DNA of 64,000 nucleotides, from contig RKRR01000138.1 of assembly GCA_007571305.1 (NCBI GenBank), positions 27,331 to 91,330 on the forward strand. Direction: 5' to 3'. Made by a program: the position numbers and the translations under genes. Origin of the DNA: Candidatus Poribacteria bacterium. Lineage in GTDB: Bacteria > Poribacteria > WGA-4E > WGA-3G. The notes beneath the pieces are model-generated. The model was not told the DNA's origin and did not search any database. It was given only the letters and a program-made list of their open reading frames with translations. Shown piece by piece: positions 31,463 to 47,347 of this stretch. Each line of letters begins with the position of its first letter. Within the stretch, counting starts at the first letter, position 1.

Positions 31463-31945
31463 GTGATGAATGCTTTAGTAGCACCATTCGGCGGACTCCT
31501 CGGCTCGGCAATTGGCGGCGTACTTTGGGCGAAATATATCCAGTGGACAGGACACACTGCTGGTTTTATCGCTATCGGTATTGGTATATTTATTGGAGCA
31601 GGGATGCTCTTGACAAGCAGCCGATGCCTCGAACGTGATGCGAGAACGATGTGGCGCGTTATCAGCACTGCGGCTGCGTTTTTCGCTATACTTGGTATCT
31701 TTATTGGGAAATACTTGGACGTTCAGTGGAATGCGGTTGCGCAAATTGCGGAACAATTGAGCCAAGAACATAATATATCTATAGAGCAAGCCTTGCCAAT
31801 CGCGAAGACTGTGTTTAACGGGCAGTCTGTGTGGGAACTTATGCAGACACGGATGAGTCGTATTGATCTGCTTTATTGTGCTGCCGCAGCTTTTATCGCT
31901 TTTCGGATTCCAAGTATCCAAAGGCTACGAGACTACCTTTATTAA
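31463..31945 (+). CDS. hypothetical membrane protein
   Basis: Several hydrophobic segments. AAGGAG lies 6 nt upstream of GTG/ATG at 31463/31466. Confidence 0.6.
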   Translation: MMNALVAPFGGLLGSAIGGVLWAKYIQWTGHTAGFIAIGIGIFIGAGMLLTSSRCLERDARTMWRVISTAAAFFAILGIFIGKYLDVQWNAVAQIAEQLSQEHNISIEQALPIAKTVFNGQSVWELMQTRMSRIDLLYCAAAAFIAFRIPSIQRLRDYLY

Positions 31946-31946
31946 T

Positions 31947-32065
31947 AGGACTTACACGTGCTGCTCTTTTGTAGAAGAACCTGTGAGGTTGTGCCACGAG
32001 AACATTTGTGTCTTTGGGGTTCTCCTTCTCACAAAGTGTCTTATGGTCAAAATTGCGTAAGTTCT
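31947..32065 (+). repeat. MITE-like repeat, family A, copy A2
   Basis: AGGACTTACAC ... GCGTAAGTTCT. ATTAAT is present on both flanks. Confidence 0.8.
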
Positions 32066-32218
32066 GATTAATAAAGACTTGCAGAAATGTTCTAATTATT
32101 AAGTTTTCGCTCTAAAGAAACGCCCGAGCAAAAATCCCTCCACTCTGTTTCGGGCAGGTTTTCGCGAAGATCGTGAGGGATTTCGTAACTTGTATGGGAC
32201 GAAAGGAGAAGGTAAAAA

Positions 32219-33664
32219 ATGAAATTTTTAACGATAGGTTTTGGCTCGCGAACTTCCTCCAAAACCTGTTTTCACATCTTGTTATCAATATTTCTTATTT
32301 CCGCACTTCTACCGATCGGTTGGAGCTCAGAAGAAACCGGCAAGACATCCGAGGACGAATTGGTAGAAAACCTCGCGCTTTTCTCAGAAATCTTTGCTTA
32401 TATCAAGCAAGCGCATCTTGACGCGCCGAATGCTAAGGAACTCGTAGAGGGTGCTATCAAGGGCGCGCTTCGCGAATTAGACCCATATAGTCAATACATT
32501 CCAGACTACGCTGCCTTTCGAACCCAAAACCGTGGTAACTACGGTGGTCTCGGAATGCTGATCGGAATTCGAGAGGATATGTTGACTGTGGTTACGCCTT
32601 TTAAAGGGAGTCCGGCTTCGTTGGCTGGTTTACAAAGCGGAGATGTTATTAGTCATATTGAAGGTGAATCAACAGCTGTAATGACCTTAAATGAGGCAGT
32701 CGAGCAATTGCTTGGTGAACCGGGGACTCCAGTTTCCATCACGGTCGTGCGTCAGAACGATAACCGTCCCTTTGAGGTGACTGTCACACGTGAAGTCATT
32801 CGGATTCCGAGCGTTGAGCAGAATCTGATTGGAGATAATATCGGCTATATCAAAATCAATCAATTTCTTGGGACGACAGCGAACGATGTAGATAACGCTT
32901 TGTTGGACTTCAAAGCAGAGAATGTCCGTGGTGTTATTCTCGACCTCCGCTCAAATCCTGGAGGACTACTCACTTCAGCTGTTGATATCGCGAGCGATTT
33001 CCTTGCCCCCGATCAGCTTGTTGTTTACAGTGAGGGAATTGAGCCGCGTGAGGACTTCAAGTCGAAAGGTGAAAAAAGGGAGCACTTTCCCTTGATTGTA
33101 CTTGTTAATGGTGGGAGCGCGAGTGCTTCTGAGATCGTCGCCGGGGCTATCAAAGACCATAGACGCGGACTTGTCATGGGTAACAAAACCTTCGGGAAAG
33201 CCTCTGTTCAACGTGTGTTTCCACTGAGCAATGCCAAATCTGCTGTGAAATTAACCGCGGCGCGTTACTTTACACCGAACGGAATCAATATCGACAAGGT
33301 CGGCATTACTCCAGATGTTAAGTCCGCATGGTTTAGCCGATCTGAACGGCAGATGCAGTTGAAACTCCGCGATAATGAGAAACTCAAAACCTTTATAGAT
33401 GAGAATGGCGACGACGTGTTGGTCCAACTCGCGACCGCTGAGCATGCCTCGCGCGATGACCGCCATGCGGCAAAAATCCTGCGGAGTTACCAACGTTTGA
33501 GTGATGCCCTGACTGAAGAACAGATTGTTCTCAGCGATATCGGCATTAAATACGCACTTGCTCAAATTACAGAAAACGACCGTGATGAATTAGAGCACGA
33601 TCCGCAAATCGTCGCCGCGATGGAACAATTGAAGGTGCTTGAACTCTTTGCAATGGAGAACTAA
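32219..33664 (+). CDS. S41-family carboxyl-terminal processing protease with PDZ domain
   Basis: PDZ (GSPASLAGLQSGDVI) and catalytic region (NGGSASASEIVAGAIKDHRRGLVMGNKTFGKASVQ). Signal-like N-terminus. Confidence 0.88.
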   Translation: MKFLTIGFGSRTSSKTCFHILLSIFLISALLPIGWSSEETGKTSEDELVENLALFSEIFAYIKQAHLDAPNAKELVEGAIKGALRELDPYSQYIPDYAAFRTQNRGNYGGLGMLIGIREDMLTVVTPFKGSPASLAGLQSGDVISHIEGESTAVMTLNEAVEQLLGEPGTPVSITVVRQNDNRPFEVTVTREVIRIPSVEQNLIGDNIGYIKINQFLGTTANDVDNALLDFKAENVRGVILDLRSNPGGLLTSAVDIASDFLAPDQLVVYSEGIEPREDFKSKGEKREHFPLIVLVNGGSASASEIVAGAIKDHRRGLVMGNKTFGKASVQRVFPLSNAKSAVKLTAARYFTPNGINIDKVGITPDVKSAWFSRSERQMQLKLRDNEKLKTFIDENGDDVLVQLATAEHASRDDRHAAKILRSYQRLSDALTEEQIVLSDIGIKYALAQITENDRDELEHDPQIVAAMEQLKVLELFAMEN

Positions 33665-35451: not shown

Positions 35452-35955
35452 TTAACGGTGTCTACGAGACTCTCGCTGGCTACGACGAACTTGGTTAGCA
35501 CGTTTCCGCATTTCTGTGCGCCGTTTCTCCTTTAATTCCATGAGTTTCGTCATCTGATCTTCTGTCAAAATTTTCTTGAGGCTCGCGTTGAATTTAGCAT
35601 GCGTTTCCTTGATGCTCTCACGGAGTTTCGTCATTGCAGCCCGCTTGTCATCAGATTTACGCGCCTCTTTAATCTGTGTCTGGAGCGTTTTACGGGTTTC
35701 CTGATAGATCGGATGTGCTTTTGCTAACGTCTCTGCATCAACTTCCATACCGAAAGTCAAATCTATCCAAGAGTGATTGAGAGCGGCAACGGGGTTTACT
35801 GTCGCTATTCTGCCACGAGCAGCACGAGTATTGTCATTGCGATACTGTTGTCTACTATGAACCTCTCGATGTGCTGCAGCCGTATTTTCAAAAACGACCA
35901 TTCCGACCATTGCGATTGTCGCGATTGCGCTGAGTACAAACCATTTCTTTTTCAT
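35452..35955 (-). CDS. periplasmic Spy/CpxP-like (LTxxQ motif) protein
   Basis: Signal peptide MKKKWFVLSAIATIAMVGMVVF, a helical charged body, and an LTEDQ motif. Confidence 0.6.
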   Translation of the reverse strand: MKKKWFVLSAIATIAMVGMVVFENTAAAHREVHSRQQYRNDNTRAARGRIATVNPVAALNHSWIDLTFGMEVDAETLAKAHPIYQETRKTLQTQIKEARKSDDKRAAMTKLRESIKETHAKFNASLKKILTEDQMTKLMELKEKRRTEMRKRANQVRRSQRESRRHR

Positions 35956-36072
35956 TTTTTTTCTCCTATCAGATTTATGATTTTGTGAATGCCCAATTAT
36001 CTTTTTAGGAAAGGCATTTACTTTTTGGTTTTACTCCTGTTAGTCATATCCGTTCAGAAAAGGTTCGTTTTT

Positions 36073-36199
36073 TATAGTAAAATCCGAAAATAATTTCACG
36101 CCTGTAGCATAGGAGACCGTTAGCCTGTGCTATTAAAAACATATAACTTCATCGTTCACACGACGATAGGTGTGTCCAAGTAATTACGGAATCTACTAT
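36073..36199 (+). repeat. MITE-like repeat, family C, copy C2
   Basis: TATAGTAAAATCCG ... CGGAATCTACTATA. Core TGTAGCATAGGAGACCGTTAGCCTGTGC. Confidence 0.75.
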
Positions 36200-36239
36200 A
36201 ATTTGTAAGAGTTTGAGAAGTATGCGAGTTTAAAGTTGT

Positions 36240-36360
36240 CAGCACTTGCGCCCGCTGCTCTTTTGTAGCATAACCTGTTAGGTTGTGCCGGGAGAACATC
36301 TGTGTTTTTTGGGTTCTGCCTTTCACAAAGCGTCCTCTGGTCAAAATTGCGTAAGTCATG
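36240..36360 (+). repeat. MITE-like repeat, family A, copy A3
   Basis: AGCACTTGCGC ... GCGTAAGTCAT. Consensus core. Flanks GTTGTC / GTTGTT. Confidence 0.8.
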
Positions 36361-36366
36361 GTTGTT

Positions 36367-38259
36367 TTACCACGGATGCTTATATGATGGCGCGTTGACG
36401 AAGCGATGCATCCCTAATTCCAATTCGATTTGTGTGTAGGGTGATAAATGGACGTGAAGATATGGACCATTGACCGAGACACTGTGTTTGTGTTGGTCGT
36501 CCTTGATGCTTACTGACGTGAACTTGTGTTCACCCATCGCACCCGCTTGCACGATGACATCCCGCGGTTCTGTGGTGTCGAGATTCACCAGTTGCAGTTC
36601 AGTGGTGTCTGCAGCCATTTTGGTAACCAATGCTCCGACATCGGGTGGAAGTCCGGGGCGTTTCTGTTGGCAGTCGAAGTACCGCACCCGCGTCACGAGC
36701 AAACCTCCGTTATAATGCGGCAACGGACCGCCACAGGTGAGTTGAACGAGCCCTTCACATGTGATTGGATTCCGTCGCTGAAAATAAGCGTCTCCATAGT
36801 TCGCGGGGTCTTCGTCGTCATCAGCCATGAAGGCGAGACGTGCCTCGACTTGGGAAAGGTTGTGGTTGAGGATTGTTTCTGGGTATTCGGGATATTCGCC
36901 TCGCATATAGGCAAGCCACCCGCCGTCGTGTCCACCGCTATCCTTGATATGGTGCCATGCATTGATGTCGAATTTTGAGCCTGTCCTTTTGGCGATTTTC
37001 TTTGCCCGTTCCTGATCCATCGGTTCCATTGACATTGCCCATAAATGCGCGACATCCGACGGATGCATCGGCATAAATTCGAACCAGCCGTCCAATTGCA
37101 AAGCCGTGCCGTCTTCATTTGTAATCGGATATTGTAACCATGGACCCGGGACATAATTGACTTTACCCGGGTCACCGTACTTCTGTGGGACGTAAAGCTG
37201 ATCGTTCTTTTGGATGCCCCTTTCAATTAAAATATCAATCTGTGAGCGCGGAAAGTCGAGATATGCCATATCCTGCCAGAGCAACATGGCATTCTGTGCC
37301 GCGATGCCTACCGCTTGTCCAACACTATGCCAACCATGGGGCCAACTCCATCCGTAGTAAGAACCGTACCATTTTCCATCAATATGCTCGCCGATTTCCC
37401 CTGATAGCCCGACGTTGTCTGGGACAATGCCTCCGTTTTCTTTTGTCCGTTCTATCCATGCGTCAACATATTCCCGAACCCATGCCTTGTATTTCTCTCC
37501 GCCAGTCAGTAGGTAGGCATTCGTGGCAAGCGTTGTCGCAGCGAGGTTGACGACAGTGTCCCCGACACCCTGACGTTCATGGTTTATCCTTCCGATATGC
37601 TCACGCAACGGTTCATTTTCCCTAACGGCTTCATGACTCGTGCCTCCGGGGATGTCGTAGAACGGCATGTTATAACCGTCCCAAGGGAAGTATGGATGTC
37701 CAGTGAAAGCCCAGAATGCTGGGCCCTTACTTCCGTTCATCGCGCATTTGATAATTTTGTGATGCGTGTCATAGTTCCGTGCATCTGGGTCTTCATTCAT
37801 GAAGAATCCTGCAAACCGTTTTGCCCGTTCGATGTTCTTCGGGTTTGAGGGATCCGCCATGCAGAGCATGTAAAAGAGATAGTTCCCTTCGCCTTGATGA
37901 AACCAGTCGTAGCCGGGTTGGTATTCTTTGACCACCATCGGATAGCCGTGACCTGTTCCGTATCGTTCCATATCGTTTGTGATGACATCGAATTCCGTAT
38001 CTGCATCCGTTAGGAACCGCGCGTCGCCACCGAGCATATAAAAGAGGGCCCAGTTATGGAAACTCTCGTAGGCATCATCCAACCCGTCGATACTCTGAAA
38101 ATCTGGGTGTGTAGGCCAGAGCAGTGTTCCGTCTGGACGCGTATATTTCTCCATGACTGCTGGCCCTGCGACATTCATTTTGTCAATGAGTTGGCGTTCC
38201 AGTACGGCCCACGTTGGTGGTGTTTGAATTAATGTCTGTGCTTCAATCCTTGGGAACAT
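36367..38259 (-). CDS. hypothetical protein (630 aa)
   Basis: Long ORF with an AAGAGG RBS and Trp/Tyr-rich composition. No family recognised from memory; a glycoside-hydrolase-like fold is only a guess. Confidence 0.7.
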   Translation of the reverse strand: MFPRIEAQTLIQTPPTWAVLERQLIDKMNVAGPAVMEKYTRPDGTLLWPTHPDFQSIDGLDDAYESFHNWALFYMLGGDARFLTDADTEFDVITNDMERYGTGHGYPMVVKEYQPGYDWFHQGEGNYLFYMLCMADPSNPKNIERAKRFAGFFMNEDPDARNYDTHHKIIKCAMNGSKGPAFWAFTGHPYFPWDGYNMPFYDIPGGTSHEAVRENEPLREHIGRINHERQGVGDTVVNLAATTLATNAYLLTGGEKYKAWVREYVDAWIERTKENGGIVPDNVGLSGEIGEHIDGKWYGSYYGWSWPHGWHSVGQAVGIAAQNAMLLWQDMAYLDFPRSQIDILIERGIQKNDQLYVPQKYGDPGKVNYVPGPWLQYPITNEDGTALQLDGWFEFMPMHPSDVAHLWAMSMEPMDQERAKKIAKRTGSKFDINAWHHIKDSGGHDGGWLAYMRGEYPEYPETILNHNLSQVEARLAFMADDDEDPANYGDAYFQRRNPITCEGLVQLTCGGPLPHYNGGLLVTRVRYFDCQQKRPGLPPDVGALVTKMAADTTELQLVNLDTTEPRDVIVQAGAMGEHKFTSVSIKDDQHKHSVSVNGPYLHVHLSPYTQIELELGMHRFVNAPSYKHPW

Positions 38260-38463
38260 GGTTTTTTACCTCTTAGGTTGGGGTTGGTTTCAGTATATCA
38301 TATTGTTGTGTGTTCGTGAAATTCAATTGATGCCATAACTGAAGTGCTCAGTTCCCCTACGCTCACTGTCCCTATTGGCAAAGTTCCCTAATCTCGTCAA
38401 CCCACAATATCCAGTTCCTTCTCATATACACTATAGGCTGACCCGTTCATAGTTAGATTTTCC

Positions 38464-38503
38464 TTGACATCTGCTTCCCGTTATGATACGTTAAATTTAA
38501 CGT
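38464..38503 (+). promoter_or_regulatory. promoter-like hexamers (TTGACA-17 nt-TACGTT) overlapped by a perfect 16-bp palindrome ACGTTAAATTTAACGT
   Basis: The palindrome lies at 38488-38503. A half-site-like CGTTAAATTTAA recurs at about 38665-38679. Confidence 0.3.
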
Positions 38504-38757
38504 GAGTTTGATAAATATTCAGGGTAGACACATTTTCGCTTAAAGTCCCCTGATAAGGGGATTTCGGGGGTTTCTCCCTAAAAAACCGCCTCTTTTTGAG
38601 CAAATATATTGTTTTTTTGCTCAATTTGCGTCCGTTTTGGACCTCTAATATTTTTTTTAAACTGGCGTTAAATTTAATAAAGTGCCCTACTTTGTATGAA
38701 GTTAATTTATGATAGAAAATTACCAAGCGAAGTTTGGATACCCGTGTGTAGACCAAT

Positions 38758-38994
38758 TTGCAAGCATGGAAAGTTTATCTTGATACATGTTGCTTGAGTC
38801 GGCTTCTTGATCCACCAACACAAGTGCGACTTATTGAAGATGAAACCGTTGCTGAAGATGAGGCCGGTAAGTTGATGGAAGTCCCAACAGAGAAAATGCT
38901 TCATGATCGAATTCCGAGGTATCTTTGCAAAAATTGTCAGAGAATGCAGACAAACAAGGGTTTAAAACAATATCTATTACACCTAAACCAATGA
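38758..38994 (+). pseudogene. PIN-domain toxin relic
   Basis: WKVYLDTCCLSRLLDPPTQVRLIEDETVA resembles the KIYLDTCxLxRPxDxxxQxRI N-terminus of one PIN family as I recall it. The remaining ~50 codons lack PIN features. At 78 aa it is too short. Confidence 0.4.
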
Positions 38995-39185
38995 ACATAA
39001 AGGCAGCAATCCAATACTATGAAGGTCTAAATGATGTCGGAAAGGCAGGTTTCATTTTGACACTAAAAAGAGAAGACCAAAAACTCTTTTTAGATGCTTA
39101 TGAAGAGCACTACTACCGATACGATCCAGAAAACGCACCGAAAGTCAAGATATCTGCACACATCTTTGAAGATGAAAAATCCTAA
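38991..39185 (+). CDS. small hypothetical protein
   Basis: The ATG overlaps the previous stop (ATGA). 64 codons with no motif and no clear RBS. Confidence 0.3.
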   Translation: MNIKAAIQYYEGLNDVGKAGFILTLKREDQKLFLDAYEEHYYRYDPENAPKVKISAHIFEDEKS

Positions 39186-39306
39186 CCGATACACATGTAG
39201 CGGGTATGCTCATGACTTTGAAATCTTCTCTTAAGACTTTATTTTTCAAACTCACGTTAGTAGTACTGAAACTTTGCTAACTGATTCCAATTATACAGGA
39301 GATAGA

Positions 39307-39981
39307 ATGTCGAATTCTCGTTACTCGTTACACCAATATTCTGTTGATACATTGTTGAATTGGATTAAGACCGAGGATATAGTTATTCCGGAAATCCAGA
39401 GGCCTTTTGTTTGGACAGCACCCAAAGTGCGTGATTTTATTGATTCACTTTACCATGGCTATCCTGTTGGGTATCTCATTACTTGGCCGAAGTCGGATGT
39501 TTCCCTCCGGGGCGGCGAAGCATCAACCCGTGAAAGGATCCTGATTGATGGGCAGCAGCGCACAATGGCACTTCGAGCGGCATTGCTTGGAAAAAAGGTT
39601 TTGACCAAAAAGTATAAGGAACAGCAAATTCAGATAGCTTTTCATCCTGATAAGGAGAGTTTCGCAGTAGCGACTAAGGCTATCTGTAACGATCCAGAAT
39701 GGATTTCTGACATCTCCACTGTTTTCAACTCTAATTCTGGTCTGCTCCGATTGGTTGATGCGTACTGTGAGAGGAATGACGAGGTGGACAGGTATAAAAT
39801 GGGGGAACGTATAGGGAAACTTTATGAAATTCGGAATAATTCTCTGGGTGTTATTGATCTTACGGCAGACCTTGATATAGATACTATCATGGAAATTATC
39901 GGCCGTATGAATAAAACAAGTTTGCACTTGCCTACGGCGAATTTCATTAAGTCTAGGATGGCCGCTATAAATTCGCCATAG
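39307..39981 (+). CDS. stand-alone DUF262 (GmrS/ParB-like, DGQQR) domain protein
   Basis: IPEIQRPFVWTAPKVRDFIDSLYHGYPVGYLITW and LIDGQQRTMAL. ATG at 39307 follows AGGAG. There is no DUF1524/HNH part. Confidence 0.8.
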   Translation: MSNSRYSLHQYSVDTLLNWIKTEDIVIPEIQRPFVWTAPKVRDFIDSLYHGYPVGYLITWPKSDVSLRGGEASTRERILIDGQQRTMALRAALLGKKVLTKKYKEQQIQIAFHPDKESFAVATKAICNDPEWISDISTVFNSNSGLLRLVDAYCERNDEVDRYKMGERIGKLYEIRNNSLGVIDLTADLDIDTIMEIIGRMNKTSLHLPTANFIKSRMAAINSP

Positions 39982-40039
39982 GTCAAGTTGCCCTGATATA
40001 CTGGTTTTATCAGTATGAGGAAAGGTTATATCTCAATTC

Positions 40040-41353
40040 ATGTCACCGAATGAAATTCTGGAATGGTTTAATCAAGCATCTATTGACAAAGCGTGGTCGT
40101 TTGCTGGCTGCAAGCCATCAGACACAGGGAAATGGACGCATGGTTACCACCGTTATCCTGCCAAGTTTATTCCACAACTTGTTGAACGCTTGATGGATGA
40201 TTACATAACCAATGGGACTGCTAGTGTAAATGATCCATTTATGGGGTGCGGAACGACAGTTGTTAGTGCAATATCGCGCGGTTTTCGCGCGAGTGGAACG
40301 GACATTAATAAAGTTGCTCACTTGGTAACTAAAGCGAAGGCATCGCCTATTGCCCCTGACTACCTTGAAAAAAAGGTTAAACAATTTCTTTCGGGAATTT
40401 TGCCATCGGATGATGAACAGGATATTTTTGATAGAGTGTGGGTACAACCCCATATCCCAAAGAAACATTTAGAAAGAATTGATTATTGGTTTATGGAAGA
40501 GGTGCGGGACGAATTGGGAAGGATCCTGACTTTAATTTATGATGAAGATGATTCGGCTGTTCAATCCTTTTTGGTGGTGGCGTTTAGTCATGTGCTTAAA
40601 ACGTGTTCAATTTGGAGTCAAAGTAGCACTAAGCCGACGCGGGATTTGAAGAAACGACCTACACTACCCTACGATGCTATTAAAAGACACCTTTTTAAAA
40701 TGCTAAAGGGCAATGAACAGTTTTACGGTGTTGTTCCATCTTGCGTTAAAGATAAGCCCGACAGTTTTCTAAATATCCAAGTACGTTCTGCCGAAAGGCA
40801 GCCTGTCCCGGACGACAGCGTAGATTTAATTGTTAGTTCAAGTCCGTATGTAACCAGTTACGAGTATGCCGATCTACATCAACTCTCGACGCTTTGGCTT
40901 GATTTAGCAGATGACCTTAAAGAGTATAAGAAAAAGTTCATCGGGACCTCTTACAAGCAGTATGAAGACAAAACGCTATCAAGTCAAATTGCTTCTAATA
41001 TTGTTGCTGAGATGCTATCTAAAAATAAAAAAAAGGCAAAGGAAATAGAAGCTTTCTTTATTGATATGCAGGGTGTCTTTAAGGAAAGTTTTAGGATTCT
41101 GAAACCGGGTGGGCGATGTTGTTACGTCATTGGGAATACCAAGTTAAGGGGCGTTGATATACTTAACGCTGAAGCATTTGCTGAGTCCTTACAACACTCA
41201 GGTTTTAAGTTGGATCGGCTTATAAAGCGCGAAATTCCACTAAAGATCCTCCCTCAGAAAAGAGATGAAAAAACAGGAAGATTTGCCAGCAAGGATAAAG
41301 CTGACTCCGAAGCATATCCAACGGAGTATATCGTTATTGGGTTAAAGGAATAG
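40040..41353 (+). CDS. DNA amino-methyltransferase (N6-adenine or N4-cytosine class)
   Basis: YPAKFIPQLVERLM...NDPFMGCGTTVV (AdoMet motif I) comes first. DLIVSSSPYVTSYEY ((D/S)PPY-like motif IV) lies about 200 aa later. No C5-MTase PCQ/ENV motifs. Confidence 0.85.
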   Translation: MSPNEILEWFNQASIDKAWSFAGCKPSDTGKWTHGYHRYPAKFIPQLVERLMDDYITNGTASVNDPFMGCGTTVVSAISRGFRASGTDINKVAHLVTKAKASPIAPDYLEKKVKQFLSGILPSDDEQDIFDRVWVQPHIPKKHLERIDYWFMEEVRDELGRILTLIYDEDDSAVQSFLVVAFSHVLKTCSIWSQSSTKPTRDLKKRPTLPYDAIKRHLFKMLKGNEQFYGVVPSCVKDKPDSFLNIQVRSAERQPVPDDSVDLIVSSSPYVTSYEYADLHQLSTLWLDLADDLKEYKKKFIGTSYKQYEDKTLSSQIASNIVAEMLSKNKKKAKEIEAFFIDMQGVFKESFRILKPGGRCCYVIGNTKLRGVDILNAEAFAESLQHSGFKLDRLIKREIPLKILPQKRDEKTGRFASKDKADSEAYPTEYIVIGLKE

Positions 41354-41360
41354 GAGAGTT

Positions 41361-42038
41361 ATGAAATTTGAAGATTTGAAAGATATGTACAGCAAGACAC
41401 AATTAGTAGAGGGAGAGGAAGCTTACAAAACGGTTTCTCAAATTTTGCAGGACGCTAAAGAACTTCATAAGAAAGATTTTTTAAGGGACAAACCCAATGG
41501 GGACCATGAACAAAGTTGGCGGGCTTTCAAGGGAAAGAATTTTGAGAGATTAATCCAACACATTATCACGGAATCAATTGAAGCCCTTGGTATGAAAGTG
41601 ATTAATGGCAATAAGTTAGAACGGAGTAAGAATTTGCCGCTGGAACTGAGACGAGTTAAACGGAACTTAGCAATTGATTACAGAGAATTTGGGTTGCATT
41701 TACCTGATGTTGATATTGTAGTTTATAGTCCAGAAGATCAGGGTGTAATTGCTGTTATCTCGAGCAAAGTTACGTTGCGCGAGCGGATAGCTCAAACAGG
41801 ATATTGGAAACTTAAGTTGTTGGCAGATCAAACCACAGAACATATCAAAGTCTATTTTATTACGCCAGACGAAGACGGCACCTTGACAGACACATATCTT
41901 CCAAAGAAAGGAAGAGCCATTGTAGAAATTGACCTTGATGGTACCTACGTATTAACAGAGGCGGATCTTGATCAAAGTGGCAAGGTCAAACTTTTTGAAC
42001 ATTTTATTGAGGATTTCAAGCAGCTTATTAAAAAGTGA
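41361..42038 (+). CDS. PD-(D/E)xK restriction endonuclease-like protein, paralogue 1
   Basis: GKNFERLI (E), LPDVDIVVY (PD) and VISSKVTLRER (SxK followed by K-x3-R-E-R). Starts 7 nt after the MTase stop. Confidence 0.7.
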   Translation: MKFEDLKDMYSKTQLVEGEEAYKTVSQILQDAKELHKKDFLRDKPNGDHEQSWRAFKGKNFERLIQHIITESIEALGMKVINGNKLERSKNLPLELRRVKRNLAIDYREFGLHLPDVDIVVYSPEDQGVIAVISSKVTLRERIAQTGYWKLKLLADQTTEHIKVYFITPDEDGTLTDTYLPKKGRAIVEIDLDGTYVLTEADLDQSGKVKLFEHFIEDFKQLIKK

Positions 42039-42156
42039 TGGATGTCTTATCTATTTTGGATATAGAATTCTTTTGTGTAAGACATATTGGAGTCGTTTCA
42101 AAATCCGATGCAAAACAGATTTGTGCGCTATCTTGTTTCTGCTATGGAAATACAGC

Positions 42157-42190
42157 ACGGTAGTATATCTTTATTGGGTTAAAGGAATAG
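42157..42190 (+). other. fossil copy of the last 33 nt of the methyltransferase gene
   Basis: ACGGTAGTATATCTTTATTGGGTTAAAGGAATAG differs from 41321-41353 (ACGGAGTATATCGTTATTGGGTTAAAGGAATAG) by one indel and one mismatch. Confidence 0.7.
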
Positions 42191-42196
42191 GTAATT

Positions 42197-42871
42197 GTGA
42201 ACAGTTTTGAAGTTTTGAAAACTCTGTATGGCGAAATGCAAGAGGAACGAGGAGAAGAAGTTTACAAGTATGTTCTCGAACTCTTACAAGAAGTTCAAAG
42301 GGTACGGAACGTATCTGGTAAAGACAAAGGGCAAAGTTCGCGTTCTTCTAATGGACATAATTTTGAAAAATTGATTCAGCATATTATCACAGAACCACTT
42401 GGGGCACTAGGCCTAGAAGTTGTTAATGGTAATACGTTAGGACGGAAGGTTGATCGAAACCTGTCGGAAGCATTAAGACAGGTTAAGCAAAATTTGCTTA
42501 TTGACTATGACAAATTTGAACGCCTTCTGCCTGACGCTGATATTGTTATTTTTAATCCCGAAAATTCGGAAGTTATTGCTATTATTTCATGTAAAATCTC
42601 TTTGAGAGAACGAATTGCTCATACCGTATATTGGAAGTTCAAACTTCTTAAAAGTCAGAAGACAGAACACATCAAACTGTATCTAATTACACTTGATAAG
42701 GACAAACACTTGACAGAAAGGGAACATCCAAAAAGACAGCGAATCATTGTGGAAACGGAGCTTGATAGCACCTATGTACTAACAACAGAGAATCTTGAGG
42801 AAAGCGATAAGGTCAAACTGTTTGAACATTTCATTGAAGATTTTAAACAAGTCATAGAAGAAAGTAAATAA
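42197..42871 (+). CDS. PD-(D/E)xK restriction endonuclease-like protein, paralogue 2
   Basis: GTG start 6 nt after the fossil stop. GHNFEKLI, LPDADIVIF and IISCKISLRER. The C-terminus KVKLFEHFIEDFKQ is identical to paralogue 1. Confidence 0.7.
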   Translation: MNSFEVLKTLYGEMQEERGEEVYKYVLELLQEVQRVRNVSGKDKGQSSRSSNGHNFEKLIQHIITEPLGALGLEVVNGNTLGRKVDRNLSEALRQVKQNLLIDYDKFERLLPDADIVIFNPENSEVIAIISCKISLRERIAHTVYWKFKLLKSQKTEHIKLYLITLDKDKHLTEREHPKRQRIIVETELDSTYVLTTENLEESDKVKLFEHFIEDFKQVIEESK

Positions 42872-42875
42872 TATA

Positions 42876-45591: not shown

Positions 45592-46299
45592 CTATACCTC
45601 GGTTCGCATTGCTTCAGCAGGGGGTAGTTTCGCCGCACGCCATGCAGGAAACGATGAACCGATGACTGCCAAAATCATGCCGAGAATACATCCCAGTAAA
45701 ATGACCACGATAACACCGAGCTGCATTGTACCGTCTTCAGGCTGCGCAGGTAACAGGGGAAAATAAAAGAATAAGTCTAATCCGTAGTCTTTAAGCCCTA
45801 AAAGGACTGCGCCGAGTGTTCCGATAAGGGCTCCGATGAGTGCACCTGAAAACCCTTGAAACCCTGATTCAAGTAGAAACAACCTAACCACGAATCCGTC
45901 TAATGCGCCGAGACATTTCATCGTTCCGATCTCGCGAAAACGTTCTGTGACTGCCATCAGCATTGAATTCGCAATACCGACGACACAGACAATCAGCGAC
46001 ATTACAATCAACCAGATATCTTTTGTGGAAATGCCTTTTTCTGTTGTCTCTTCAAAAGTGTTAATTGCCGATTGTCGTCCGCTTTCCTGTAATGCGAGAC
46101 CGATTTCATTATTTGTCCACACCGACACGAGAAATGCGATACCGAGCGTAATACCAGCTGTCGTAATGATTGAACGTCCAAAACGGATTTTTAAACTCTG
46201 AAAACTAATTCGTAAAGATTCTACAAAAGGGAGATCAATCTGTTCTTGAATTGGTGTTCTTTGCTGCAAATGTCTATACTCCTTATCCTTGATTTGCAT
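45592..46299 (-). CDS. FtsX-like ABC permease with minimal periplasmic loop
   Basis: TM1, a short loop and three C-terminal TMs. MAVTERFREIGTMKCLGA is the typical FtsX/MacB motif. Confidence 0.8.
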   Translation of the reverse strand: MQIKDKEYRHLQQRTPIQEQIDLPFVESLRISFQSLKIRFGRSIITTAGITLGIAFLVSVWTNNEIGLALQESGRQSAINTFEETTEKGISTKDIWLIVMSLIVCVVGIANSMLMAVTERFREIGTMKCLGALDGFVVRLFLLESGFQGFSGALIGALIGTLGAVLLGLKDYGLDLFFYFPLLPAQPEDGTMQLGVIVVILLGCILGMILAVIGSSFPAWRAAKLPPAEAMRTEV

Positions 46300-46367
46300 T
46301 TGTTTATGTGTATTTTAGCAAATTTACAATTTTCAGTCAAGTTTTTCATGTGTAGTTCAGGGTGATT

Positions 46368-46498
46368 TATGGTAAACCCTAAAAATAAGTTCACACTTGT
46401 AGCATAGGAAACCGTTGGTTTCCTGTGCTATTAGAAGCATATTACTTCAGAGTTCACACGACGCTACGAGCGTATCAGTAATTACGGAATCTACTATA
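46368..46498 (+). repeat. MITE-like repeat, family C, copy C3
   Basis: Degenerate left end TATGGTAAACCC and right end CGGAATCTACTATA. Core TGTAGCATAGGAAACCGTTGGTTTCCTGTGC. Confidence 0.7.
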
Positions 46499-46616
46499 TG
46501 GTAAATCCTAAAAATATATGCAGCATTTCGTAGCATAGGAAACCGTTGGTATCCTGCGGGCGAGGATGCACAGGAGACCAACACCCTATGCTACAGGACT
46601 GGCAACTCGGGTTAAG
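46497..46616 (+). repeat. chimeric repeat: family C-like left end, family B-like right end
   Basis: Starts TATGGTAAATCCTAAAAATA (as C3) and ends CTGGCAACTCGGGTTAAG (family B terminus). Contains two core hairpins in opposite orientation. Confidence 0.6.
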
Positions 46617-46723
46617 TAATTCTAATATCTACCATAGTTCTTATAGAAACTGTGCCGACAAGGAACAAGATTGACTTTCCGATCTCTCGTTGTTATACTG
46701 GATGCCGAGGCAGGTACAGATTG

Positions 46724-47347
46724 ATGCTCCGAAATTCCCTTTATTTTCCACTCCTATTGTTATCTGTCGGTATATTGTGCTGGAGTACGCAGATTTTTGC
46801 ACACGATGCTTTCTATCCACACCATCGCGAGGATTTTGAGAGCCTGACGCGCCGTCGCGAGTTACGAGGGACGGTTATTTTCAGTACCACTGTTTTTCTT
46901 TGTGTGCTTGGAACAATCGTCTACATCGCTTTGCGGAAGATTAAGGATGCTGATGACATAGACGAGCGTGAGACAAAGAAGGTTCAGGAACGTTTGGTCG
47001 ACGCTGCAAACAGAGCGGCACATGCGGCAAAATACGTCCTTAACACCGAAGAGAACATTGCGAAAGCCGCCGAAACAGCCCTAACAACATACGCTGAGGT
47101 ATCCGGTGTGACGTGGCAATCGCGTTCTTATAGGCGGAGTCATGCTGAATCAGTTCCGTACCAAATCCGGTGCAAAATCGGAACTGACATTGTTACCCTT
47201 AACATCAATACTGAAGTTGTGAAATTAAAAGCGGAACACAACCTTCCTAAATCCGTTATCGGTTCACAAGGAACATCGAAAAGCGCAAATGTGGTGCTAA
47301 GAATCGCGGATAAGGAAAGGGAGAAAGGCGTTTCGTGTGAGAAATAA
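46724..47347 (+). CDS. hypothetical protein with signal peptide and one TM helix
   Basis: MLRNSLYFPLLLLSVGILCWSTQIFA. The track start at 46652 lies inside repeat-derived sequence. Confidence 0.55.
   Translation: MLRNSLYFPLLLLSVGILCWSTQIFAHDAFYPHHREDFESLTRRRELRGTVIFSTTVFLCVLGTIVYIALRKIKDADDIDERETKKVQERLVDAANRAAHAAKYVLNTEENIAKAAETALTTYAEVSGVTWQSRSYRRSHAESVPYQIRCKIGTDIVTLNINTEVVKLKAEHNLPKSVIGSQGTSKSANVVLRIADKEREKGVSCEK

Follow-up and report, generated by a model that had tools for sequence, protein, structure and literature searches.

A predicted Type II restriction-modification cassette with two CCGG-family nuclease genes in a variable defence hotspot of Candidatus Poribacteria

The island and its genes

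Poribacteria are sponge symbionts. A 64,000-nucleotide (nt) stretch of DNA from Candidatus Poribacteria bacterium (GenBank assembly GCA_007571305.1, contig RKRR01000138.1, positions 27,331 to 91,330 of the forward strand), referred to here as the window, contains an AT-rich island at positions 38260-42875 of that stretch. The island encodes a predicted Type II restriction-modification (R-M) system, with one methylase (M) and two paralogous nucleases (R1 and R2), preceded by a truncated gene for a DUF262 protein (DUF262N). The account we favour, and consider probable without regarding it as secure, is that of a horizontally acquired Type II R-M cassette of the CCGG (BsaWI/PfoI/AgeI) family, carrying an accessory second nuclease and residing in a variable Poribacteria defence hotspot. 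The locus is not a new DUF262-based system. The principal genes and the two neighbours of the island are the following, with coordinates in the window and lengths in amino acids (aa).

UP630, upstream neighbour of the island, minus strand: 630-aa DUF8034 protein
39274-39981, plus strand: DUF262N, 235 aa, or 224 aa from the likely ATG at 39307; GmrSD_N/DUF262
40040-41353, plus strand: M, 437 aa; Type II DNA amino-methyltransferase, Pfam N6_N4_Mtase
41361-42038, plus strand: R1, 225 aa; predicted BsaWI-type CCGG-family restriction endonuclease, PF18643 E = 1.9e-33
42039-42196: R1-R2 spacer, probably non-coding, with the RBS-like sequence AAAGGAATAGG (RBS, ribosome-binding site) ahead of the R2 start
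42197-42871, plus strand: R2, 224 aa with a GTG start; BsaWI-family paralogue of R1, PF18643 E = 1.6e-28
42876, start of DN297, downstream neighbour: AP_endonuc_2/xylose-isomerase-like TIM barrel

GC content is 0.392 (39.2%) in the island against 0.481 (48.1%) in the remaining window, and 502 of 502 same-size segments elsewhere in the 64-kb window exceed the island value (minimum 0.454, mean 0.479, standard deviation 0.013). The AT-richness that had first been noticed by eye is thereby borne out, and from the low GC of the island we infer a foreign origin, by horizontal acquisition, of the cassette. Other short AT-rich stretches, with GC of 0.37-0.42, occur in the window at 31750-32500, 35500-36500 and 46000-46750. 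The four large open reading frames (ORFs), DUF262N, M, R1 and R2, are co-oriented on the plus strand with intergenic gaps of 58, 7 and 158 nt, and 4 nt separate the last stop codon of the island, that of R2, from the next gene. These gene calls, orientations and distances agree with the original prediction, an earlier reading of the same DNA, as do its domain guesses: Pfam searches and the 54% identity between R1 and R2 confirm two intact PD-(D/E)xK paralogues beside one amino-methyltransferase. PADLOC profiles returned a Type II methylase (MTase_II, E = 2e-54 over the full length of M), a weak Type II nuclease match for R1, and N-terminal DUF262 matches only. The NCBIfam search was uninformative for the products of all four large ORFs.

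A database search with R1 found 4054 homologues. A scan of one genome per GTDB species yielded 76 loci with R1 homologues, labelled from L001 onward, and about 80 loci were examined overall. The closest loci of the scan (80-88% identity) are almost all from metagenome-assembled genomes (MAGs) of Candidatus Poribacteria, several of which also have the flanking genes of the window.

The methylase and its two nucleases

The motif order of M is that of the alpha class, with motif I (DPFMGCGT) followed by the target-recognition region and then by motif IV (SSSPY). Motif IV reads (S/T)SSPY in 46 of 52 orthologues. S-P-P-Y-type motifs in amino-methyltransferases indicate N4-cytosine methylation. M matches PDB entry 2zie (TTHA0409) with its SSPY aligned to SPPY, and because motif IV is of the SSPY type, M is probably an N4-cytosine methylase.

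Against RE_BsaWI (PF18643), with its gathering cut-off of 26.2, R1 reaches 115 bits and R2 99 bits, and R1 matches the BsaWI structure 4zsf in the PDB. A model of R2 from AF2 (pLDDT 88.6) has PfoI as its top Foldseek match (E = 1e-6, TMq 0.69); BsaWI, PspGI and AgeI come next, and Kpn2I and SgrAI match as well; this structural comparison, which the original prediction had proposed as a check, places CCGG-family enzymes on top. Both nucleases, with an amino-methyltransferase gene adjacent, resemble in this respect BsaWI (W^CCGGW) and the other Type IIP/IIF enzymes of the CCGG family (PfoI, AgeI, Kpn2I, PspGI, NgoMIV, SgrAI). The alignment of R1 with BsaWI, read with the residue roles published for BsaWI (PMC4652773), gives the correspondences below.

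CCGG minor-groove contacts: BsaWI N81 and K84; R1 Q51 and R54
Outer base-pair reader: BsaWI K85; R1 A55 (Ser in R2)
First catalytic Glu: BsaWI E92; R1 E62; R2 E57
Catalytic Asp: BsaWI D145; R1 D116; R2 D113
Catalytic Lys: BsaWI K165; R1 K136; R2 K133
CCGG recognition motif: BsaWI R169-D170-R171; R1 R140-E141-R142; R2 R137-E138-R139

D118 is a further key residue of R1, as are Q46, R49 and D115 of the R2 in the window. The spacing of Q51, E62, D116 and K136 in R1 corresponds to that of N81, E92, D145 and K165 in BsaWI, and the R-E-R motif is continuous. A permuted active site as in PfoI was considered as well, in the form E...DxD...K, since the spacing of E62, D118 and K136 equals that of PfoI E113, D169 and K187. 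It was rejected as the primary assignment: when the alignment is anchored on the conserved Q/N residue of the minor groove, the spacing is BsaWI-like and D116 is the conserved Asp. The differences from BsaWI are nevertheless substantial. Sequence identity is very low (phmmer E = 2e-3), R1 has 225 residues against 272, two paralogous nuclease genes are present here instead of one, and the fourth active-site residue of BsaWI, D175, is Thr in both R1 and R2. Kpn2I has Gln at the position equivalent to D175 (PMC6344858), so Thr there is no bar to membership of the CCGG family. With K85 of BsaWI replaced by Ala in R1 and by Ser in R2, specificity for W at the flanks is improbable.

About 50 of the roughly 80 loci examined, in several phyla, have a conserved M-R1 pair. 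The stretches EQSWRAFKGKN(F/L)E, LPDVDI and SSKVTLRERIAQTGYWK are invariant in 51 of 51 R1-type sequences, a set that covers Poribacteria as well as single-nuclease systems in other phyla, whether one nuclease or two are present. In the series L027-L054, M (437 aa) is followed by one R1-type nuclease and by nothing else of the island; the hosts include Methanoperedenaceae, Woese- and Pacearchaeota, Cloacimonadia, Omnitrophica, WOR-3, Atribacteria, Zixibacteria and others. Within Poribacteria, L021, L029 and L050 likewise have M-R1 but lack R2, and in L050 R1 abuts DN297. Because of these single-nuclease systems, within Poribacteria and beyond, R1 is evidently autonomous and would have no need of R2. 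Judged by sequence, M and R1 together make up a classical CCGG/BsaWI-family Type II pair, found across many bacterial and archaeal phyla. The pair at the core of the island is an ordinary one.

In a few MAGs R1 is split or truncated while M is intact (L056:7001-7668, L059:7001-8349, L026:7001-7680, L024:7001-7630). R2 is also broken in L059 and is intact beside the broken R1 in L056. These cases could represent real inactivation or assembly indel errors. Carriage of the cassette by plasmids or phages was considered and rejected, as tblastn searches with R1 gave zero matches in PLSDB and INPHARED.

R2 follows M and R1 in the same order in about 20 Poribacteria loci, each from a species-level genome. 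Most of these lie between UP630 and DN297, but M-R1-R2 occurs in at least four contexts: beside DN297, between B12-binding and RACo genes in L002 and L003, and in the separate settings of L009 and L014. Close R2 alleles (73-87% identical) are located on contigs that also bear R1, and the contigs of R2-type database clusters agree in length with those of R1 clusters. R2 is therefore a Poribacteria-specific paralogue attached downstream of M-R1, and the three genes move together. A neighbour-joining tree of 88 family members places R1 in a tight clade within the single-nuclease systems and R2 in a sister group with long branches. Catalytic and recognition columns of R2 are invariant or nearly so in 46 sequences. 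R2 differs from R1 in the minor-groove/outer-base segment, which reads QSSRSSNGHNFE in R2 and QSWRAFKGKNFE in R1, and the copy in the window has an unusual W-to-S change in its QSW motif.

The spacer between R1 and R2 is conserved at about 85-90%, by eye, among loci of the window clade (L084-L086), and its length ranges from -4 to 284 nt across clades. A small ORF of 42-50 aa within it was rejected as a gene: its start codon is missing in L086, and the spacer is for that reason probably non-coding.

Rates of protein evolution were compared as NG86 estimates of the ratio of nonsynonymous to synonymous substitution (dN/dS) over 17 loci, with the mean amino-acid identity of each protein.

R1: dN/dS 0.06, identity 0.87
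M: dN/dS 0.09, identity 0.80
DN297: dN/dS 0.10, identity 0.79
R2: dN/dS 0.21 (about 130 pairs), identity 0.62

The R2 protein evolves about 3.4 times faster than R1, and its dN/dS of 0.21 indicates a gene under selection and not in decay.

Poribacteria are not alone in having a second nuclease gene. In Latescibacterota (L022, L023, L025, L055) the order is R'-M-R1, and the extra paralogue precedes the methylase gene; R' is about 40% identical to the R1 of its own system and has intact motifs. L046 (6143-7720) has the order M-Ra-Rb, in which Ra and Rb are a lineage-specific tandem duplicate, 62% identical and sisters in the tree. By these gene orders and the tree, the double-nuclease layout appears to have arisen independently at least three times: as R2 in Poribacteria, as R' in Latescibacterota and as Ra/Rb in L046.

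The DUF262 fragment and the defence hotspot

DUF262N matches PF03235 with E = 6e-26 over profile positions 4-197 of 199 and contains the DGQQR motif. Its length of 224 aa from the ATG at 39307 is that of homologous database proteins. It has the full GmrSD_N domain of GmrSD/BrxU/SspE-type Type IV enzymes, in which DUF262 is joined to DUF1524, and shows N-terminal matches to BrxU (PDB 7p9k). Its best PADLOC matches are to the N-termini of HEC-05, PDC-M55C and NsnA, a similarity that is generic to DUF262. The window copy differs from those enzymes in ending at residue ~224 without the nuclease half. We found neither a fused DUF1524/His-Me half nor an adjacent GmrD gene, as the ORF ends at residue 235 and the next gene, 58 nt downstream, is M; the original description of a stand-alone DUF262 protein without its DUF1524 partner was correct. 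With the nuclease half absent, the fragment cannot act alone as a GmrSD enzyme.

Full-length relatives reveal where the fragment comes from. DUF262N is 81% identical to residues 1-220 of a 584-aa protein in L067 and 52% identical to the N-terminal 220 residues of a 597-aa protein in L070, both encoded at the equivalent place, after a TPR gene. These full-length proteins (584-597 aa) have a C-terminal DIHHIFP(K/Q)N, a DUF1524/His-Me signature (DIHHIFPKNH in L067). Homology of DUF262N to them ends after "...MAA", and its stop codon follows four codons later. At that point begins the putative 5' control region of the cassette, whose elements are listed here.

39973-40039, plus strand: cassette 5' control region, with -35-like element, extended -10, palindrome and RBS (putative function)
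39973-39978, plus strand: -35-like TCGCCA, directly before the DUF262N stop codon TAG at 39979-39981
39994-40002, plus strand: extended -10 TGATATACT, in the arrangement TCGCCA-N18-TATACT with an upstream TG
39998-40016: palindrome ATACTG-N7-CAGTAT ahead of M, also given as ATACTGAT-N3-ATCAGTAT
Within 39973-40039, upstream of M, plus strand: RBS AGGAAAGG

This region aligns across loci, whether the upstream gene is a TPR gene or the DUF262 fragment, and a promoter scan also picked 39973-40002; a promoter function is predicted for it. Because the region is common to loci with either upstream gene, the 5' boundary of the cassette can be placed about 60 nt upstream of M, where the DUF262 ORF ends. 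The DUF262 ORF is thus the first ~220 codons of a 584-aa GmrSD-like (Type IV) gene, truncated at the promoter boundary of the cassette. A 14-nt inverted repeat (39931-39944 and 39969-39982, 93% complementary, with a 24-nt loop) covers the 3' end of DUF262N, including its stop codon, just upstream of the M promoter. A hairpin across the stop codon was rejected: the consensus fold of six loci is weak (-7.9 kcal/mol); 2 of its pairs covary and several are broken.

The truncated ORF is intact with the same end in L008, L010, L013, L016 and L056, and about 25 database clusters consist of the 224-aa form. It is present in only 6 of the ~21 M-R1-R2 loci; the other ~15 usually have a TPR gene abutting the promoter. 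It is missing in L001, which has the flanks of the window, in L086, whose R2 is of the allele class of the window (76% identical), and in all single-nuclease systems examined. More distant short DUF262 ORFs elsewhere are IS66-truncated or represent split genes of 243+334 and 242+276 aa. The DUF262 fragment is not a core component of the cassette. The original prediction had taken the four genes for one DUF262-centred module; the truncation at the cassette boundary, and the absence of the DUF262 gene from ~15 of ~21 homologous loci, which largely fulfils what that prediction itself had named as grounds for refutation, speak against this, and its second hypothesis, in which the DUF262 NTPase recruits the nucleases in place of DUF1524, finds no support.

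To the left of M-R1-R2, or of the DUF262 fragment, there is usually a TPR-repeat gene, as in at least 14 of ~21 loci (L001:5322-6602, L002:5787-6617, L086:4576-5766 and others). These loci include the non-syntenic L002/L003 context, whose TPR protein shares 60% identity with the one in L001. The window has a 1-kb leader with a PIN relic in place of the TPR gene, and three further features precede its DUF262 fragment.

38260-38757: leader, non-coding, with a perfect 16-nt palindrome ACGTTAAATTTAACGT at 38488-38503 and an imperfect inverted repeat at 38582-38638
38758-38994, plus strand: PIN relic, the first ~25 codons KVYLDTCCLSRLLDPPTQ joined to unrelated sequence
38992-39186, plus strand: small ORF, 64 aa from its ATG, no assigned family

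Parts of the leader are 76-88% similar to sequence upstream of the hotspot in many Poribacteria loci. The leader had been described as a promoter with a palindrome. The palindrome is present, but promoter-like matches across the island are at chance level (13 found, 12.1 expected from shuffled sequence), and the conserved element lies instead directly upstream of M. Terminator-like matches within the island are likewise no more frequent than chance. The PIN relic, which gave no significant Pfam match of its own, was recognised correctly in the original prediction: positions 38758-38830 match the first ~25 residues of an intact 167-aa PIN ORF (L070:1360-1863) and also the N-terminus of a split copy in L061. 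The small ORF, likewise noted at the outset, is kept at 92-94% nucleotide identity in L013 (4531-4734) and L016 (49-252) and gave zero matches in Pfam, NCBIfam and PADLOC. It is better conserved than its neighbours and sits upstream of the DUF262 fragment in all three loci.

The slot between UP630 and DN297 holds varied cargo among Poribacteria: M-R1-R2 with or without the DUF262 fragment, TPR genes, PIN or toxin-antitoxin relics, full-length GmrSD, a 267-aa beta-class methylase with an HNH protein, and an Mrr_N-like gene. It is a variable defence hotspot with cassette turnover. In swapping defence cargo between its DUF8034 and AP_endonuc_2 flanks it resembles known defence islands with cassette turnover; unlike them, it shows no integrase, transposase or tRNA at the island borders within the window.

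At least 14 Poribacteria genomes without M-R1 (L061-L077) have, directly upstream of DN297, a BsaWI-like ORF of 271-283 aa, here called R270 (for example L063:6734-7549 and L067:6725-7543). Its spacing to DN297 is a few nt, like that of R2; the occupant of the slot, whether R2 or R270, lies 4 nt from DN297 in the window, L063 and L084. The N-domain of R270, of ~90 aa, is a different one; the catalytic Asp and Lys are gone, as is the R-E-R motif, but the C-terminal helix KVKLFEHFIEDFK is kept. Its upstream partners vary, being a beta-class methylase with HNH, an Mrr_N-like gene or a full-length GmrSD. R270 looks like a retained, catalytically dead restriction-enzyme homologue. The idea that R2 is nearer than R1 to the R270 clade was rejected: the C-terminal region of R270 is 0.61 identical to R1 and 0.58 to R2, an equal similarity that leaves genomic position as the only link between R270 and R2.

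Roles of the second nuclease and the fragment

In the account we favour, M would methylate a site with a CCGG or CCNGG core, probably as N4-methylcytosine (m4C). R1 would act as a homodimer or tetramer cutting unmethylated sites, as its invariant Q-x-x-R, E62, D116, K136 and R-E-R suggest. R2 would be a second active nuclease of the family, directed at the same CCGG core and harmless to the host under M methylation. Since the same methylation would protect, R2 could change fast without killing the host, and shared methylation would leave it free to drift in its outer contacts and N-domain, giving a second, variable restriction activity. The incoming cassette would have cut the GmrSD gene at about codon 220, making the 224-aa DUF262-only ORF a by-product of insertion that is kept in some lineages and not required by the cassette.

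Several observations weigh against this account. What we propose for the recognition site, for the methylated base and for R2 activity comes from sequence comparison. Site avoidance was analysed as Markov observed/expected ratios for CCGG, all NCCGGN, CCNGG and NCCNGGN, in the window and 385 kb of carrier loci against 213 kb of non-carrier Poribacteria loci, and zero NCCGGN or NCCNGGN words are depleted specifically in carriers of the cassette. Some R2 copies, not including that of the window, have lost residues expected of an active enzyme. The first catalytic Glu is Gln in L008, L010, L015 and L056, and R-E-R has become A-E-R in L003, L008, L010, L012 and L056; such variants are easier to explain if R2 is non-catalytic or has an altered role than if it is simply a second nuclease. 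In AgeI, the first Arg of the R-E-R motif can come from another structural element (PMC6344858). R1 and R2 share the C-terminal helix KVKLFEHFIEDFK residue for residue, although their codons for it differ at synonymous positions. Residues R259 and W262, at the C-terminal end of helix H9, are part of the interface through which BsaWI forms tetramers (PMC4652773), and with this role of H9 in mind the helix common to R1 and R2 makes mixed oligomers of the two plausible. Finally, the DUF262 fragment has a dN/dS of 0.18 over a dS of 0.61 (six copies) and an intact DGQQR, unlike a mere by-product.

Two side observations belong with these analyses. Ra of L046 has the same Glu-to-Gln change as some R2 copies. 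Several other palindromes are very strongly avoided: for GGCGCC the window has 0 occurrences where 6.7 are expected and the 385 kb of loci have 1 where 35.8 are expected, and in the window and Poribacteria loci observed/expected is 0.08-0.12 for CATATG and GACGTC, 0.11-0.24 for CTAG and about 0.3 for GGCC. Avoidance of this strength suggests other active R-M systems in these Poribacteria genomes.

The alternative that survives best, although we hold it unlikely, is that R1 and R2 form a mixed oligomer, either a heterodimer or an R1(2)R2(2) tetramer like the alpha2beta2 BslI or the two-site tetramers of the CCGG family, in which R2 changes specificity, adds a DNA-binding unit or controls R1. 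The two genes are always adjacent and co-oriented and move together. BsaWI itself forms dimers by swapping N-domains, and its tetramers are held by C-domain contacts, among them those of the H9 C-terminus (PMC4652773). Recent gene conversion between R1 and R2 was rejected, as a sliding comparison of nucleotide identity reveals no conversion tract between them in the window and the KVKLFEHFIEDFK peptide is coded with synonymous differences; the shared helix would then be held by selection. A non-catalytic partner could tolerate the E62Q and R-E-R to A-E-R changes that recur in some R2 lineages, and the repeated origin of the double-nuclease layout can be counted on the same side. Against a mixed oligomer, R1 and its DNA-contact residues are unchanged between single- and double-nuclease systems, R1 occurs without R2 in three Poribacteria loci, and R2 falls to ~50-60% identity while R1 stays at 82-88%, which is hard to square with a tightly co-adapted interface.

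Heteromeric Type II enzymes offer a close parallel to such an arrangement. The Type IIT enzymes BbvCI and Bpu10I, and the alpha2beta2 BslI, likewise have two adjacent nuclease genes of similar size in one R-M operon, and in BbvCI as in Bpu10I one subunit is a relative of the other (PMC4081073, PMC6326814). As a rule, a Type IIT system comes with two methylases, or a fused pair, and an asymmetric site (PMC4081073). The island has a single methylase gene, and the genomic evidence differs also in that R1 occurs with M alone, both in L027-L054 and in Poribacteria. The first hypothesis of the original prediction, a Type II system with a heterodimeric nuclease, thus holds in part: a two-nuclease Type II system is real and conserved, but an obligate heterodimer is unlikely, since R1 and the same methylase occur elsewhere as a single-nuclease system.

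A functional role of the truncated DUF262 protein within the module, as a DndB-like regulator or sensor or as an NTPase working with the PD-(D/E)xK nucleases, seems to us quite improbable. Its ORF is intact in six species-level genomes as well as in the database clusters, always directly upstream of M-R1-R2; its dN/dS is low, with both the DGQQR and QR motifs retained; and its stop codon adjoins the -35-like element of the M promoter. The fragment may therefore retain some function, and given the dN/dS of 0.18 that function may be regulatory. The low value may also come from conversion with full-length paralogues elsewhere in the genome, which could imitate purifying selection. Membership in the module is contradicted by the absence of the fragment from most M-R1-R2 loci, near relatives included, and from every single-nuclease system, by its plain derivation through truncation of a 584-aa GmrSD-like gene at the cassette boundary, and by the IS66-truncated or split state of similar short DUF262 ORFs elsewhere.

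Least probable, and to be given little credence, is that R2 has no function, or no catalytic activity, and is what remains of an earlier occupant of the slot beside DN297, on the path of the dead R270 homologues: the slot does hold either R2 or an R270 without the catalytic D, K and RER, R2 does evolve 3.4 times faster than R1, and the window copy has its W-to-S change, but a dN/dS of 0.21 over ~130 pairs means purifying selection, the window R2 keeps E57, D113, D115, K133 and RER, R2 moves with M-R1 into other genomic contexts, and close alleles are kept in other genomes.

Under the favoured account of a CCGG-family cassette with an accessory nuclease, what is new here is the second paralogous CCGG-family nuclease beside one methylase; the M-R1 pair itself is of an already known type. 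A description of two paralogous CCGG-family nucleases sharing one methylase was not found in the literature searched, REBASE being outside that search. We suggest, tentatively and with more doubt than confidence, that M-R1-R2 is a natural design of one methylase with two nucleases, in which methylation of the shared CCGG core protects the cell against every member of the family and R2 explores flanking specificities or oligomeric roles at 3-4 times the normal rate and to which Poribacteria, Latescibacterota and the L046 lineage have come independently, or else that R1 and R2 are the first natural heteromeric enzyme of the CCGG family.

The locus documents turnover at a defence hotspot, where an R-M cassette decapitated a Type IV GmrSD gene and where a dead restriction-enzyme homologue is kept elsewhere at the same slot. 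It also carries a warning for annotation, as a "stand-alone DUF262" beside an R-M system can be a product of truncation and not a new component. If R2 is active, the cassette would be a tractable natural example of restriction specificity diversifying safely under a shared methylase, and uncultured sponge symbionts would be a possible source of new CCGG-family enzymes, or of a heteromeric one.

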